Counted from the stretch's first letter, positions 13,985-20,268 are shown. The stretch: 64,000 bases of DNA from Desulfosudaceae bacterium (GCA_963674745.2 CAXXDV010000003.1:1984001-2048000); one strand, 5' to 3'. The notes: a model not told the origin generated them from the sequence alone. Translations and numbers: made by a program.

Positions 13985-14090
13985 GTTAGCAACAGAGCCG
14001 TCCTGATGGACTCGTGAATTATGCGGGCAAGACACTGAAACCGAATAGAATGTCCGGACTAAAGTACGACTGAAAGAGAGGTCTTTTTTG

Positions 14091-14885
14091 ATGAAATGGT
14101 CAGATGAAGCTGAAGAGGCCCTGAAAAAAGTGCCTTTTTTTGTCAGGAGCAAGGTCAGAAAAGCCATCGAAAAACAGGCAGCCGATCAGAATAAAAGCCG
14201 GGTAACCCTGGATGACGTCATGGCCGCCAAAAAACGGTTTCTCAACAAAATGGCCGAAGATGTACGGGGTTTTCAGGCGGACACCTGTTTCGGCCCGTCC
14301 GGATGCCCGCATCGGACAGTGGCATGCGGCAACCTCATGCAGCAGGTGGAAGATCGACTGGTCAGGGCCGACCTGCTCGGCTTTCTGAAACAGACTGTTG
14401 GTGAACAATTGAAATACCACCATGAATTCCGGGTGTCCGCGGCTGAATGCCCCAATGCCTGTTCCCAGCCCCAGATCAAGGACATCGGCATCATCGGTGC
14501 GGTTGTGCCTGAAATCACCGACCAGGCCTGTACCGGTTGTGAGTCATGCCTTGATGCCTGTCCGGATAACGCCATCACCATGGATCATGACCGGAATATT
14601 CCCGTTATCAGCACCGCTGACTGCCAGAAATGCGGGAGATGTATCACCGCCTGCCCCACCGGCACCATCATGGCCGGCGAAAAGGGTTTCCGGGTGCAGC
14701 TGGGCGGACGCCTGGGCCGGCATCCCCGGCTGGGACTGGAGCTTCCGGGTATCCTGACGGAAGACCAGGTACTGGAAGTACTGGACAATGCCCTGCGGTT
14801 CTATAAAAACCGGTCGCAAAAAGGTGAACGGTTTTCCCGCCTGCTAGAGGAAGAAGACCTGGAAACAGTTTTTCCCGAACGATGA
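14091..14885 (+). CDS. Sulfite-reductase-like 4Fe-4S protein with N-terminal PCP_red-like domain
   Basis: WSDEAEEALKKVPFFVRSKVRKAIE, CFGPSGC, ECPNACSQPQIKDIGIIG, two CxxCxxCxxxCP motifs, GGRLGRHP. Confidence 0.75.
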   Translation: MKWSDEAEEALKKVPFFVRSKVRKAIEKQAADQNKSRVTLDDVMAAKKRFLNKMAEDVRGFQADTCFGPSGCPHRTVACGNLMQQVEDRLVRADLLGFLKQTVGEQLKYHHEFRVSAAECPNACSQPQIKDIGIIGAVVPEITDQACTGCESCLDACPDNAITMDHDRNIPVISTADCQKCGRCITACPTGTIMAGEKGFRVQLGGRLGRHPRLGLELPGILTEDQVLEVLDNALRFYKNRSQKGERFSRLLEEEDLETVFPER

Positions 14886-15739: not shown

Positions 15740-17065
15740 ATGATTTCAATTTTAAAATATGACGGCCACCAGACCATACAAAAAGCCGTCAATCTGGTGA
15801 ACGGGTTTGAGCGTTTACGCACCGGCCACCGTGTCATGATCAAACCCAATGCGGTCGGCGCCGACCCCAACATGCCGTATTTCGGCATGATGACCACGGC
15901 CACCGTGGTGGAAGGTATCGTTCTGGCACTCCTGGATTTCGGCTGCGACCCGAAAAACATTACCATTGGAGACGGGGGCGCCGCCCGGCGGGAATTGGGG
16001 TTGAGCACCCGTGTCATTCTGGCCGCCATGGGCATGGCCCATATTGCCCGCAAGTACGGGGTGAAGGTGATGGATTTCAACCAGGCACCCACGACCCGTA
16101 TCAAATGCGGCGATCTTGATCTGGATATCGCAAAACCGGCGCTGGAGACGGACTTCCTCATCAATGTGCCGGTACCCAAGTATCATGACCAGACCCTGGT
16201 CACCTTAAGCCTGAAAAATCTGAAAGGCTGCCTGGCCCCGGATTCCAAGCGTCGTTGTCACACGGCCCGGCTGGAGGATCATATTGCCGCCTTTAACACG
16301 GAAATCCCCTGTCACCTGACCGTGATGGACGGCATATATTTTCTTCGCGGCGGCGGCCCCATGATCGATTCCGGAGAGCCCTGTCGAAAAGACATGATCA
16401 TGGCCGGGACGGACCGCATTGAAATGGATTCAGCGGCAGCCAGGATACTGGGTGTTGAACCCGAAAACGTGCGTCACCTGACCGCATATGCGCGCCTCAA
16501 AGAACGGGAGAGTGACATCGGGCGGGTTGAGTGGATCGGAGACAACCCTGAACACTTTCGTGAACCGCCTTTCGGCGGCACAATGGAAGTCTTCGGCCGG
16601 AACTTTCAGCGGGCTGATATAACCGGCATTCATCTCCAGCCGCCGGGCCAGACCTGGTGTACCGGCTGCAACATCAGCCTGCGGGCAGCGCTGTACATGC
16701 TCTGTAAAGACAATCCCGGTCAGGATTTTGGCGGCGTTGAGATCCTGTGCGGTAAGCAAACCCGGGCGGATGGCCACCATGAACGAACCATTCTGTTCGG
16801 TGACTGCCCGATCAAAACCAATGCCAAAAACAAAAAAATCAGAAACCGCCTGGAAATCCCGGGTTGTCCGCCATCGTTCATCAAGTCCTATCCGGCCATG
16901 ATGCGGTTTCTCCAACCAACCCTGAAAGCCTGGTGGCAGGTCACTAAAAACCTTGCCCTGGGGGGGCTGACCCATACCGGCCTGTATCGGATGCGATTTC
17001 CTTTTTTTGACGAAATGACCCGTTCCGCGGAGTTTGATCCGCTTGATTTTTATCGTAAATCCTAA
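15740..17065 (+). CDS. DUF362 domain Fe-S protein
   Basis: VMIKPN, LINVPVPKYH, VTLSLKNLKG, VMDGI, C-terminal WCTGC...LFGDC...IPGCPP. Confidence 0.8.
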   Translation: MISILKYDGHQTIQKAVNLVNGFERLRTGHRVMIKPNAVGADPNMPYFGMMTTATVVEGIVLALLDFGCDPKNITIGDGGAARRELGLSTRVILAAMGMAHIARKYGVKVMDFNQAPTTRIKCGDLDLDIAKPALETDFLINVPVPKYHDQTLVTLSLKNLKGCLAPDSKRRCHTARLEDHIAAFNTEIPCHLTVMDGIYFLRGGGPMIDSGEPCRKDMIMAGTDRIEMDSAAARILGVEPENVRHLTAYARLKERESDIGRVEWIGDNPEHFREPPFGGTMEVFGRNFQRADITGIHLQPPGQTWCTGCNISLRAALYMLCKDNPGQDFGGVEILCGKQTRADGHHERTILFGDCPIKTNAKNKKIRNRLEIPGCPPSFIKSYPAMMRFLQPTLKAWWQVTKNLALGGLTHTGLYRMRFPFFDEMTRSAEFDPLDFYRKS

Positions 17066-17101: not shown

Positions 17102-18064
17102 ATGAAAAAATGGCTGCATAACAACCTGCGTTGCCCGGAGTGCCTTCCGGACGAGGTGCCCCTCACACTCGACAGCGATGACCAGGATCAGGATGAGATC
17201 ATCAACGGTCAGCTGATTTGCCCTGAATGCCGGCAGACATATCCTGTTGAAAACGGCGTGGCCATTGTCCTGCCCAGGCGGACAAAACCGCTCCTGTCAA
17301 ACGGAACCGGTTACAACTCCTGGGGCATGCTGTCCTCATACCTGTGGAGTCATTACGGTGAATTTTTCAATGATCCGGAAGCCACCGACGCCTACCGGCT
17401 ATGGTCGTCGTGTTTTATCGAATCCCAGGGATATGCCCTTGATATCGGCTGTGCGGTGGGCCGTTTGTCGTTTGAGTTGAGCAAAACCCACGCCCGCGTC
17501 ATCGGGATCGACACATCGCTTTCTTTTATTACAAAAGCAAGAACCCTGCTGCAGCAAAAACGACTTGAATTCGATCTGATAAAAGAAGGCCTGATTACAG
17601 AAAAACGTGCCTGTGACCTGGATCCGAACTGGAATTATGAAGGGATCGAGTTCATTGTGGCCGATGCCCTGGCCCTGCCATTTGCCCGCAACTTCTTTGC
17701 CACCGTGGCTTCGGTCAATGTTCTGGAAAAAGTTTCCCATCCCCGGCATCACCTGATCGATGTCGATCGGGTGTTGCGGGAACAAAGGGCCATGTTCGTA
17801 TTCGCCGATCCCTTTTCATGGGATGAAAACGTGTGCCCGCCGGAAATGTGGCTGGGTGGGACGGACAACGGAAAACATCCCGGCCGGGGGATGGATAACA
17901 TGACGGAATATTATCTGGGGAAGGACGGCCTTTTTGACCCGCCTTTTGAAATTCTGGATAAAGGGAAAGTCCTCTGGAAGATCAGAAAAACCGAGAATCT
18001 TTGGGAATACATCAATTCACAATATATTGTAGGCATCAGAAATAACCGGGAGAACAACGATTGA
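17102..18064 (+). CDS. SAM-dependent methyltransferase resembling the OvoA C-terminal (mercaptohistidine N-methyltransferase) domain, with N-terminal Trm112-like CxxC...CxxC domain
   Basis: LRCPEC...LICPECRQTYPVENGVAI, LSSYLWSHYG, ALDIGCAVGRLSFEL, GIDTSLSFI, KEG, DPFSWDE...WLGG, WKIRKT. Confidence 0.7.
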   Translation: MKKWLHNNLRCPECLPDEVPLTLDSDDQDQDEIINGQLICPECRQTYPVENGVAIVLPRRTKPLLSNGTGYNSWGMLSSYLWSHYGEFFNDPEATDAYRLWSSCFIESQGYALDIGCAVGRLSFELSKTHARVIGIDTSLSFITKARTLLQQKRLEFDLIKEGLITEKRACDLDPNWNYEGIEFIVADALALPFARNFFATVASVNVLEKVSHPRHHLIDVDRVLREQRAMFVFADPFSWDENVCPPEMWLGGTDNGKHPGRGMDNMTEYYLGKDGLFDPPFEILDKGKVLWKIRKTENLWEYINSQYIVGIRNNRENND

Positions 18065-20268
18065 AAACCAGACATGGCATTTGCGGTATCTGTTTCCACA
18101 GCCCTGGATGCGGTGCCATCGTTCATTTTGATGACGACGGCCGGATAGTGCGGCTGACGCCTGACCCGGAAGCGCCGGCAGGCAAAGTTCTGTGTCCTAT
18201 CGCGGACAGCGTTCAGGAAATCGTCTATTCGGACAAACGGCTCAAACAGCCGTTAAAACGGATCGGCGCCAAAGGTTCATATGACTTTGAACCCATCACC
18301 TGGGACGAAGCCTATGACATCATTGTGGACAGGTTAAACGACCTGAAAAAACGCCACGGGCCGGAGACGGTGGGATTCTACGCGGGGACAGGCTCATATG
18401 AACGGGCCTTCAAGGACGTGTTTCAATTAAAGGGGTCGGAAATATACCTGGCTTCCAGCATCCTGTTTCCGTTCGGCTCACCCAATACGTTCGGCGTTGG
18501 CGCCCCCTGTTACACCTCCCTGGGCGTCCTGGCACCCAAGCTGACCATGGGATGCCGGCACATCGACATGTTTTCAGATATCGACAATTCCGACCTTATC
18601 CTTGTCTGGGGGACGGACCCCTCCCGGTCCACGCCACCGGAAATGTTCCAGCGGATCCGGGTCGCCGCCGAAGAGGGCGCCGAGATCATTGTCATCGATC
18701 CCCGCAAAACCAAATCCGCCAACCTGCCGGGCAGCCGCTGGGTCCCCATCCGGCCGGGTTCTGACGGCGCACTGGCCCTGGGTTTGGCCCACGTGATGAT
18801 CAGGGACAATCTTTACGACAAAGCCTTTGTTGATGAATGGACCATCGGGTTTGATGCATTTGCAGAATATGTAAAGAATTTCACACCGGCGCATGTGTCA
18901 AAAATTACGGGGGTATCTGAAAACATCATAGCGGACCTGGCGGAAAACATCGCTGAAGCCGAAGGCGCCTCTTATGTCATGTATACCGGACTGGAATATA
19001 CCAAAAGCGGCGTTCAGAACATCCGGGCGGTCATGGTCCTGTGGGCATTGGCCGGTCAGCTGGACGTACCCGGAGGCCGCTGTTTTCTAGGGCAGGACAG
19101 AATGATCCCCTTGAACAGAAGCCGGCAGCTGGAAACGCCCGGGTTTGACCGGTCGATTGCCGGGGGCAAGTTTCCGGTCTATTCCCACTTCTGCGGCGGC
19201 GAGCCCCACGCCAATCTCCTGCCGCAGGCGATCGTTGAAGGCGATCCCTACAAAATCAGATCCTTGTTTGTTCTGGGCGCCTCCCTTATAACATCCTGGC
19301 CAACCCCCGAACGCTGGCGCAAAGCCCTGTCCGATCTGGAATTTTTGGTTTGCATTGATCTGCAGCTGACAGCCGACGCGGCTTATGCCGACATCGTGCT
19401 GCCCGCCGCGACCGCCTTTGAGCAGGAATCCTACTGCTATTATGGAAATGCCATCCGTTTCCGGGAAAGAATGATCGCCCCCGTGGAACAGGCCCGGCCC
19501 TGTTACGACATCCTGGCGGAACTGGCGCAACGACTGGGGTACGGCGATTTGTATCCGCAAAGCACAAAAGAACTGATGGACTATGTCCTGGGCGAATCCG
19601 GTTTTACCTTTGATGACATGATGAATGCGGACCGGTATGTGCTGCGGATGCCCGGCCGCCCCATGGAATATCAAAAATGGGAAAAGGGGTTGCTGCGAAA
19701 GGACGGTCAACCGGGATTCGACACCCCTTCGGGAAAATTCGAGATCGGTTCGACCACCCTTGAAGATTATGGATATGACGCTATTCCCCGGTATGAAGAA
19801 TCCGATGAGACACCGGCCAGCCGACCGGATCTGCTTGGCAAATATCCCTTAATCCTGGGTACCGGTCCCTTCAAGCCGGACATGAAATCCTGTTTCCGGG
19901 CCATACCGCGCTTCATAGAAAAATATCCCTGCCCGCTGATTGAGATCAACCCGGCCGACGCCGAAGAACGCGGTATCAATACCGGCGATCCCGTCAGCGT
20001 CAAAACCGTCCGTGGCGCCATTATCATGCAGGCCATGGTGACCGACACCATCATGCCCGGTTTTGTCTACGCCCAGGTGGGCGGCGGCGGGCCGCTCGGC
20101 CCGGAGGCCTGGCAACAGGCCAACGCGAATACGCTGACCGATCTGGATCAGTTTGATCCGATCTCCGGCTTTCCCGTCTATAAGACCCTGTTGTGCCAGG
20201 TCAAAAAAAAACGCCGTAAACGCAAGGGCATCGCCGTTCAAGACCCGTCCCTGGGATGCGTGGGCTGA
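18061..20268 (+). CDS. Mo/W-bisPGD oxidoreductase of the acetylene hydratase / metallopterin ergothioneine synthase (MES)-like group
   Basis: TTG start overlaps the upstream TGA. CGICFHSPGC...LCP Fe-S motif, RLKQPLKRIGAKGSYDFEPITWDEAY, FPFGSPNTFGVGAPCY, IRPGSDGALALG, ADIVLPA, TPSGKFE, DPISGFPVYK. No Tat signal seen. Confidence 0.8.
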   Translation: MKTRHGICGICFHSPGCGAIVHFDDDGRIVRLTPDPEAPAGKVLCPIADSVQEIVYSDKRLKQPLKRIGAKGSYDFEPITWDEAYDIIVDRLNDLKKRHGPETVGFYAGTGSYERAFKDVFQLKGSEIYLASSILFPFGSPNTFGVGAPCYTSLGVLAPKLTMGCRHIDMFSDIDNSDLILVWGTDPSRSTPPEMFQRIRVAAEEGAEIIVIDPRKTKSANLPGSRWVPIRPGSDGALALGLAHVMIRDNLYDKAFVDEWTIGFDAFAEYVKNFTPAHVSKITGVSENIIADLAENIAEAEGASYVMYTGLEYTKSGVQNIRAVMVLWALAGQLDVPGGRCFLGQDRMIPLNRSRQLETPGFDRSIAGGKFPVYSHFCGGEPHANLLPQAIVEGDPYKIRSLFVLGASLITSWPTPERWRKALSDLEFLVCIDLQLTADAAYADIVLPAATAFEQESYCYYGNAIRFRERMIAPVEQARPCYDILAELAQRLGYGDLYPQSTKELMDYVLGESGFTFDDMMNADRYVLRMPGRPMEYQKWEKGLLRKDGQPGFDTPSGKFEIGSTTLEDYGYDAIPRYEESDETPASRPDLLGKYPLILGTGPFKPDMKSCFRAIPRFIEKYPCPLIEINPADAEERGINTGDPVSVKTVRGAIIMQAMVTDTIMPGFVYAQVGGGGPLGPEAWQQANANTLTDLDQFDPISGFPVYKTLLCQVKKKRRKRKGIAVQDPSLGCVG

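Follow-up and report, generated by a model that had tools for sequence, protein, structure and literature searches.

The known ovothiol pathway, via OvoA, requires O2 and iron, and OvoA's C-terminal domain (OvoA-C), OvoM and OvsM are N-pi-methyltransferases of 5-thio- and 5-selenohistidine. Metallopterin-dependent ergothioneine synthase (MES), described from Caldithrix abyssi (CaMES; Beliaeva and Seebeck 2022, PMC9516567), comes from strict anaerobes, is encoded beside a histidine-pathway methyltransferase of the EgtD type, and consists of a cytoplasmic molybdenum- or tungsten-bis(pyranopterin guanine dinucleotide) (Mo/W-bisPGD) module with four iron-sulfur (FeS) cysteines and a cysteine metal ligand, fused to a pyridoxal phosphate (PLP)-dependent cysteine desulfurase with Lys952, Cys1074 and Cys1135. 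Here we analyze a gene pair in a 64,000-nucleotide stretch of DNA from a Desulfosudaceae bacterium (GCA_963674745.2 CAXXDV010000003.1:1984001-2048000, all of which is called the window below) that is like the MES system in these respects except for two: its Mo/W-bisPGD enzyme, MoW-I, has no fused desulfurase, and the partner methyltransferase, MT, is OvoM-like rather than EgtD-type. The sequences and their genomic context suggest that this pair is probably a module that makes an N-methylated mercaptohistidine without oxygen, the product being either ovothiol A or an isomer of it. The two genes and their parts lie in the window as follows:

17102..18064, + strand: methyltransferase gene (MT), 320 amino acids (aa), ATG start, protein P0001, from the open reading frame (ORF) and its translation
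17102..17281, + strand: Trm112-type zinc ribbon of MT, residues 1-60, with Cys11, Cys14, Cys40 and Cys43
17303..18043, + strand: methyltransferase domain of MT, residues 68-314, homologous to the OvoA C-terminal domain along its whole length
18048..18052, + strand: GGGAG, Shine-Dalgarno-like, 8 bases before the MoW-I TTG and within the end of the MT gene
18061..20268, + strand: Mo/W-bisPGD enzyme gene (MoW-I), 735 aa, TTG start, protein P0002
18082..18195, + strand: [4Fe-4S] motif of MoW-I (Cys8, Cys11, Cys17 and Cys45), aligned with CaMES Cys14, 17, 21 and 48
18508..18510, + strand: codon of MoW-I Cys150, the predicted Mo/W ligand, in FPFGSPNTFGVGAPC, aligned with CaMES Cys153
20200..20265, + strand: C-terminal tail of MoW-I, VKKKRRKRKGIAVQDPSLGCVG, residues 714-735, including Cys733; candidate persulfide-carrying arm

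The initial annotation, made from the sequence alone, had described two overlapping genes with a TTGA junction at 18061-18064, and both ORFs are indeed there: they are on the same strand and overlap by 4 bases in an ATTGA context, the MoW-I TTG (18061-18063) overlapping the MT stop codon TGA (18062-18064). The motifs it had named can all be read in the translations, those of MT as SSYLWSHYG, ALDIGCAVGRLSFEL, GIDTSLSFI, KEGL, DPFSWDENVCPPEMWLGG and KIRKT, and the FPFGSPNTxGVGAxCY region of MoW-I as FPFGSPNTFGVGAPCY. Three features go beyond that description, namely the zinc ribbon of MT, the lack of a cysteine desulfurase module in MoW-I and the conserved cysteine-bearing C-terminal tail of MoW-I.

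The methyltransferase

MT is a divergent branch of the OvoA-C/OvoM/OvsM superfamily that carries an added zinc ribbon. It matches TIGR04345 (ovoA_Cterm, NCBIfam) with E=1e-32 and 113.6 bits over profile positions 6-238 of 242, while the runner-up small-molecule methyltransferase family reaches about 31 bits and all other TIGR04345 matches in the whole genome reach at most 32.8 bits. Among solved structures, the MT sequence finds OvsM at 2e-22, OvoA at 3.8e-16 (chain residues 463-671) and OvoM at 6e-16, with the next methyltransferase at 2e-6; a profile built from 14 members of the MT family finds OvsM at 3e-27, OvoM at 5.9e-25 and OvoA at 5.8e-24, with the next methyltransferase at 7.5e-11, and its alignments with the first three reach the C-terminal IR(K/E)T...SQ motif. 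When the family alignment (A1) was compared by hhalign with a full-length OvoA (P0409, 691 aa), MT residues 68-314 aligned with OvoA residues 444-690 (probability 99.4, E=8.7e-22, 234 columns, 33% identity). The motifs HYG, ALDxGCAVGR, GxDxSxxFI, EG, SP(F/Y)(S/T)W, WLGG and IR(K/E)T are common to MT and the characterized enzymes, at an overall identity of about 23-33%.

Structure comparison gave the same nearest relatives. An AlphaFold model of MT (predicted local distance difference test score, pLDDT, 79.5; predicted template modeling score, pTM, 0.84) was used in a Foldseek search, whose top 10 matches are all OvsM, OvoA or OvoM (2e-19 to 4e-18); the next is at 2.5e-10, with RlmA(I) and carnosine N-methyltransferase at about 3e-10. 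The closest solved structures (PDB 8khq, 9bxl-n and 9bxh-k) have a template modeling (TM) score of 0.8, normalized to the target. ESM Atlas matches for MT are unnamed methyltransferase clusters only, and a search among longer proteins for a fused MT-Mo/W protein gave an ordinary OvoA as its sole match, which is weak evidence of absence.

Pfam recognizes a Trm112-type zinc ribbon and a class I methyltransferase domain in MT and, as the initial annotation had said, no sulfoxide-synthase domain. The ribbon, which is MT's own addition relative to OvoA-C, OvoM and OvsM, matches PF03966 (Trm112p) at residues 4-52 with E=4e-9 (36.6 bits, cut-off 22) and also NF038101 with E=3e-13; its Cys11, Cys14, Cys40 and Cys43 are invariant in alignment A1, and AlphaFold gives pLDDT values of 87-94 across residues 1-60. 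Trm112-type ribbons are known from partners of RNA and protein methyltransferases, and in the structure search RlmA(I) comes directly behind the OvoM group, but could MT then methylate RNA or protein, with the Mo/W enzyme thiolating the same macromolecule? We think this extremely unlikely, as the OvoM group is ahead of the other methyltransferases by 9 (Foldseek) to 16 (profile) orders of magnitude in E-value.

The best solved match of MT is the 5-selenohistidine methyltransferase OvsM, slightly ahead of OvoM, and a selenium version of the route, in which a selenide or perselenide donor would give an ovoselenol-like selenohistidine derivative, has to be considered as well. The margin of OvsM over OvoM and OvoA in the profile search above is small, however, and there is no conserved selenium-donor gene beside the pair, and we regard this version as very unlikely.

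The Mo/W enzyme and its sulfur supply

The Pfam domains of MoW-I are Molybdopterin (E=9e-43) and Molydop_binding (E=6e-19), and there are no others. When a library of 1.84 billion cluster representatives was searched exhaustively with HMMER for its homologues, 15,882 of the representatives matched. The top match past its own cluster (65% identity) is an 1139-aa protein, 52% identical over residues 2-721, in which Molybdopterin and Molydop_binding domains are fused to an Aminotran_5 domain, and all 120 listed homologues of that protein are likewise Mo-bisPGD::Aminotran_5 fusions (their sources are Desulfobacteria, Methanoculleus, Nitrospirota, Scalindua and Jettenia). These fusions can be recognized as MES as follows: one of them, P0390 (1136 aa), has Cys14, 17, 21, 48 and 153, Lys952, Cys1074 and Cys1135 in exactly the CaMES numbering of PMC9516567, and 26 of 26 fusions inspected end in ...CR, that is, with a penultimate cysteine. 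According to the main text of PMC9516567, the penultimate cysteine of MES is essential and the C153S variant has lost MES activity.

Trees were built with FastTree (149 rows) and with IQ-TREE (57 rows, LG+C20 model with posterior mean site frequencies, PMSF). In both, the MoW-I clade and the fused MES clade are sisters (FastTree support 97; IQ-TREE SH-aLRT 99). In the FastTree tree the MoW-I clade includes representative P0123 and the MES clade also contains P0131, a 708-aa representative that was taken as a partial MES, and beyond MoW-I plus MES come P0125, then P0127 with P0132-P0136, and then P0130. MoW-I is 52.5% identical to P0390 (383 of 730 aligned positions) and 36.1% identical to the acetylene-hydratase homologue P0163, and a 14-residue insertion before FPFGSPN is common to the pair enzymes and MES and is not present in P0163. 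An alignment of 64 pair enzymes and 115 MES N-modules shows the cysteines of the cofactors, five in all (MoW-I Cys8, 11, 17, 45 and 150), to be 100% conserved in each family, and at 193 positions the two families have the same residue with an invariance of at least 95%. The MES-like character that the initial annotation had given MoW-I is thus borne out to the extent that it is the nearest relative of MES's metallopterin module, but it stands as sister to the fused MES clade and not within it.

The best solved relative of MoW-I is acetylene hydratase (2e7z, E=9e-58), which, like MoW-I, is cytoplasmic, consists of a single subunit and has one FeS cluster and a cysteine ligand; polysulfide/thiosulfate reductase is also among the nearest, and NCBIfam gives generic sub-threshold matches only (PhsA, 239.8 bits against a cut-off of 694). 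MoW-I could accordingly be an ordinary oxidoreductase or hydratase, like polysulfide/thiosulfate reductase, an S-/N-oxide reductase or acetylene hydratase, with MT methylating its small product or being unrelated to it, and the pairing of a second MT subfamily with a Mo/W clade outside MES (below) is in keeping with this. We nevertheless judge it improbable. MoW-I has no twin-arginine translocation (Tat) signal, because its FeS motif already starts at residue 8, and genes for the FeS and membrane subunits that, with a Tat signal, belong to polysulfide/thiosulfate reductase (PsrA/PhsA) are not conserved at MoW-I loci; a role as a respiratory reductase was rejected for the lack of both. As for acetylene hydratase, P0163 (E=2.4e-143 to 2e7z) falls in the other half of the tree, its identity to MoW-I, 36.1%, is below the 52.5% of the MES module, and the residue after the second FeS cysteine, which we take to be the position of the catalytic Asp in acetylene hydratase, is Phe12 in MoW-I. 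The adjacency of MoW-I to MT in 74 of 80 loci (below) also argues against an ordinary oxidoreductase.

If MoW-I is related to MES in its chemistry, where would its sulfur come from? MES cannot do without its fused desulfurase, Cys1074 or Cys1135, and the obligatory sulfur transfer takes place within one polypeptide (main text of PMC9516567). MoW-I does not have this obligatory desulfurase, and therefore its sulfur supply must work differently. The genome gave no desulfurase match other than a NifS/IscS homologue encoded by a gene of its own (contig C1, 917994-919103), which is 47% identical to the MES C-module.

MoW-I does have a basic C-terminal tail, which ends in ...LGCVG. Among 63 full-length orthologues 60 end in (D/N)(P/A)xLGCx(G/A), and the three without this motif look truncated. 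Cys733 occurs in 95% of the pair rows, against 1% of the MES rows; Cys378, Cys459 and Cys611 are also pair-specific, and Cys121 and Cys246 are MES-specific. The tail was not found in MoW-II or in the orphan unfused MES-like relatives described below. We infer that it may be a persulfide-carrying arm that stands in place of the Cys1135 arm of MES. The DsrC arm is a persulfide carrier, and the DsrC/TusE arm, like the MoW-I tail, has a G-C-V cysteine at the extreme C-terminus (the DsrC of this genome ends in ...KPTGCV and MoW-I in ...PSLGCVG), although the likeness covers 3-5 residues only and MoW-I has no DsrC fold.

Distribution of the pair and of the wider MT family

To survey the pair, one genome per species was scanned with the MT alignment; 96 relatives came up, and 80 loci were retained. 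Going by the record titles, almost all are from Desulfobacterales, Desulfatiglans, other sulfate reducers, or metagenome-assembled genomes (MAGs) of unclassified Deltaproteobacteria or Proteobacteria. Cultured species that carry the pair include Desulfonema magnum, Desulfoluna spongiiphila, Desulfatibacillum alkenivorans and Desulfosarcina variabilis (loci L001, L007, L016 and L068). MoW-I (67-76% identity, tblastn) adjoins MT in 74 of the 80, as the initial annotation's pairing of the two enzymes had led one to expect; it starts within about 200 bases downstream of MT in 73 and is directly upstream in one (L079). Of the remaining six, four reach a contig end (L014, L037, L062 and L077), and L070, with 1.6 kb of sequence downstream of MT, and L078 are true misses. 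When all ORFs of the loci were clustered, no gene besides these two proved conserved; the further families that recurred were shadow ORFs inside the pair.

Two kinds of neighbor recur at a minority of MT loci. One is a second methyltransferase of about 358 aa (Rv2258c-like, HTH_65 plus Methyltransf_31) directly upstream of MT in 10 of the 80, which could add a further methyl group; the other, just upstream of the window's type of MT (MT-I) in 6 of the 80, three of them in records titled Desulfatiglans, is an M19 dipeptidase with a protein of the metallo-beta-lactamase fold (Lactamase_B_2):

L002-L006, L008, L014, L022, L023 and L077: second methyltransferase (for example L004:8895-9971, + strand)
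L045, L049, L051, L053, L054 and L055: M19 dipeptidase and Lactamase_B_2 protein (for example L053:6523-7545, - strand, and L053:5683-6522, + strand)

In the window itself a gene for a DUF362 protein (441 aa; 15740-17065, + strand) ends 36 bases before the MT start and may be co-transcribed with it; it was rejected as a part of the module because at other loci it is not a conserved neighbor of the pair. Farther upstream (14088-14885, + strand) is a gene for a 265-aa protein with an unusual combination of PCP_red, nitrite/sulfite-reductase-type 4Fe-4S and ferredoxin domains. No riboswitch or other RNA family was found between 13500 and 20600 at E up to 0.1, and promoter and terminator scans did no better than on shuffled sequence.

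Genomes that carry the pair were searched for the two known alternatives. EgtD (PF10017) was found in none of six carrier genomes (the window's genome, which is 99.96% complete, and five others), and the N-terminal domain of OvoA (OvoA-N, TIGR04344) was found in none of them above its 400-bit cut-off, the best score being 75 bits. Thus the check that the initial annotation had proposed, absence of egtD and ovoA-N, came out in its favor in all six, for ovoA-N at the level of the family cut-off, and no iron sulfoxide/selenoxide synthase like those of the OvoA, OvoM and OvsM systems was found with MT in these genomes. Since the search of these carriers turned up no EgtD, trimethylhistidine is an unlikely substrate of MoW-I.

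The phylum to which the window belongs was sampled with 301 genomes. Fused MES is present in 20 (17 full-length and 3 cut short, of which a contig end accounts for at least one). EgtD is matched strongly in every one of the 20, and in 19 it shares a contig with MES at a distance of no more than 3 kb, which served as an independent check that the fusions are MES. Genomes with an MT homologue (E up to 1e-30) number 28. In four of the 28, including the window's genome, MT-I (51-100% identity) lies beside an unfused enzyme with 52-53% identity to MES, and none of the four has EgtD. The other 24 carry a sister subfamily, MT-II, that is 37-42% identical to the window's MT and whose best family is still TIGR04345 (84-105 bits). 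MT genomes with EgtD number only three, all of one genus and all also with fused MES; in one of these (G092, locus L108) MT is of the radical-SAM-linked type described next.

Twenty of the 24 MT-II loci were examined. In 11 of them a Cys-ligated Mo/W-bisPGD enzyme of about 687 aa, MoW-II, which is outside the MES superclade in the IQ-TREE tree, is encoded directly downstream of MT-II. In four others a gene for a B12-binding radical S-adenosylmethionine (SAM) protein (674-686 aa where complete) is upstream of MT-II, and five have neither. In all four radical-SAM loci a small peptide with 4-9 (S/A)CHAP repeats is encoded between the radical-SAM and MT-II genes; an M19 dipeptidase gene follows downstream in three (L104, L108 and L111), and an Aminotran_5 gene adjoins in L111:

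L097-L103, L107, L113, L115 and L116: MT-II with MoW-II (for example L097:3921-5984, - strand, beside L097:5995-6933, - strand)
L104:7024-7098, - strand: (S/A)CHAP peptide gene
L105:7035-7169, - strand: (S/A)CHAP peptide gene
L108:7172-7261, - strand: (S/A)CHAP peptide gene
L111:7088-7147, - strand: (S/A)CHAP peptide gene

The repeat peptide was found in none of 117 other loci, nor in the window's genome. From their sequences these radical-SAM/CHAP operons look like a peptide-templated Cys-His route. One MT family is therefore found alongside three different candidate C-S-forming systems in anaerobes, and a thiohistidine-type substrate for this family gains independent support because the CHAP system sets Cys and His side by side. 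At two MT-II/MoW-II loci there is also a further 681-aa Mo-bisPGD enzyme (L098:7804-9849, - strand, and L102:2926-4971, + strand) with the canonical Molybdop_Fe4S4 domain, and two ferredoxin genes are just upstream of MT-II/MoW-II.

Unfused MES-like proteins are also encoded at four other loci:

L117:2334-4481, - strand: orphan unfused MES-like gene
L118:3065-5164, + strand: orphan unfused MES-like gene
L119:5962-8187, + strand: orphan unfused MES-like gene
L120:5926-8124, + strand: orphan unfused MES-like gene

These were considered as a way to further partners and rejected, as they have no consistent neighbors.

A candidate thiohistidine route compared with known systems

How might the two enzymes work together? 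If it works in the way that has been proposed for MES, cytoplasmic MoW-I, with one [4Fe-4S] cluster and a Cys150-ligated Mo/W-bisPGD, would transfer a metal-bound sulfido sulfur to a ring carbon of free L-histidine. The reduced metal would be re-sulfurized from a persulfide on Cys733 of the flexible basic tail, which would replace the Cys1074/Cys1135 relay of MES, and the tail might be loaded by a stand-alone desulfurase of the NifS/IscS type or from the sulfur relays of these sulfate reducers, whether sulfide, polysulfide or DsrC-type. OvoM-like MT would then methylate a ring nitrogen of the thiohistidine with SAM. The substrate, ring position, sulfur donor, step order and product in this scheme are those we infer for the pair. 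MES sulfurizes C2 and the sulfur of ovothiol is at C5; the sequence evidence does not decide between the two, and the product may therefore be ovothiol A or an isomer. Sulfurization before methylation is favored because OvsM leaves histidine itself unmethylated; its pathway runs through selenylation of histidine and then methylation (available portion of the ovoselenol preprint).

Several observations weigh against the proposed role of the pair. The 113.6 bits of MT are below the NCBI curated ovoA_Cterm cut-off of 170 bits, and MT is only about 30% identical to characterized enzymes; the initial annotation had seen an OvoA-C-type methyltransferase along the whole length, and this stands as full-domain homology with OvsM, OvoM and OvoA-C as the nearest characterized enzymes, though with a score under that cut-off. 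MoW-I ends at residue 735 without a desulfurase, and none is conserved beside the pair. Thirty positions are invariant within each family yet differ between pair enzymes and MES, and some of them adjoin the metal ligand. MT-II pairs with the non-MES enzyme MoW-II, and the MT family is therefore not found only alongside MES-like enzymes. Conversely, the four orphan unfused MES-like proteins (46-49% identical to MES) have no MT partner. Finally, the genomes with the pair are few and related, and the mutual exclusion of EgtD and the pair is therefore suggestive and not statistical. Of the route that the initial annotation had drawn, anaerobic sulfurization of histidine by an MES-like enzyme followed by N-methylation by an OvoA-type one, the kinship of MT, the kinship with the MES module, the conserved pairing and, in the carriers searched, the lack of any EgtD match and of an OvoA-N match above the cut-off have held up, and against it are the position of MoW-I outside the MES clade, its lack of a desulfurase and the sub-threshold score of MT.

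The 30 family-specific differences, together with the sister position of MoW-I, mean that a different substrate or chemistry is possible for it. Among them, MES has F116, F157, F600 and F610 where the pair enzymes have Y113, L154, L599 and M608, and the pair enzymes have R115, K118, D186 and E337 where MES has L118, C121, N189 and P340. One may speculate from these residues that they fit a switch from a quaternary-ammonium to a free-amine substrate. The same enzyme types might instead sulfurize and then methylate a different imidazole or N-heterocycle, or else a dipeptide or peptide that contains His. The authors of the MES study suggest, in its main text, that oxidative heterocycle sulfurization may be common among uncharacterized Mo enzymes (PMC9516567), and an M19 dipeptidase gene is beside MT in 6 of 80 MT-I loci and in three MT-II loci. 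On the other side, MT retains the motifs of thio- and selenohistidine methyltransferases along its whole domain, and the dipeptidase is present neither in the window nor at most loci. We hold such another substrate to be unlikely, and a route from free histidine to an N-methylated mercaptohistidine to be the probable one. A fuller version of that route is more tentative, and we put it forward as a possibility that is less likely than not: sulfate-reducing Desulfobacterota would make ovothiol A, or a new N-methyl-2-thiohistidine, anaerobically by a stand-alone sulfurase with a DsrC-like arm, and convergent anaerobic thiohistidine routes that share the zinc-ribbon MT family would then number at least three (MoW-I, MoW-II and B12 radical-SAM/CHAP).

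What is new here is a combination and an architecture of known enzyme families that have not been described before; the case is strong for sequence and genome context, and the chemistry is a proposal. In a literature search that did not extend to subscription journals, neither a Mo/W-dependent route to ovothiol or thiohistidine nor a CHAP-peptide route was found described, and the text of the MES paper, its supplement aside, has no mention of unfused homologues or OvoA-like partners (PMC9516567). As of 2023, four ergothioneine pathways and one ovothiol pathway were known, according to the available portion of PMC10696552. If the proposal is correct, thiols of the ovothiol type would, like ergothioneine, have an anaerobic origin, C-S bond formation by Mo/W enzymes would reach beyond MES, and a sulfurase module would be able to function without a fused desulfurase. 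Strictly anoxic, sulfidic bacteria would also contain a redox-active thiol, and it is not obvious that it would serve them as an antioxidant. Oxygen-independent transfer of sulfur to an imidazole, coupled to a methyltransferase, is already known from EanA/EanB, to judge by the available portions of PMC9516567 and PMC10696552, and the pair would be like that system in both respects; EanB differs from MoW-I in that it belongs to the unrelated rhodanese family and has trimethylhistidine as its substrate.

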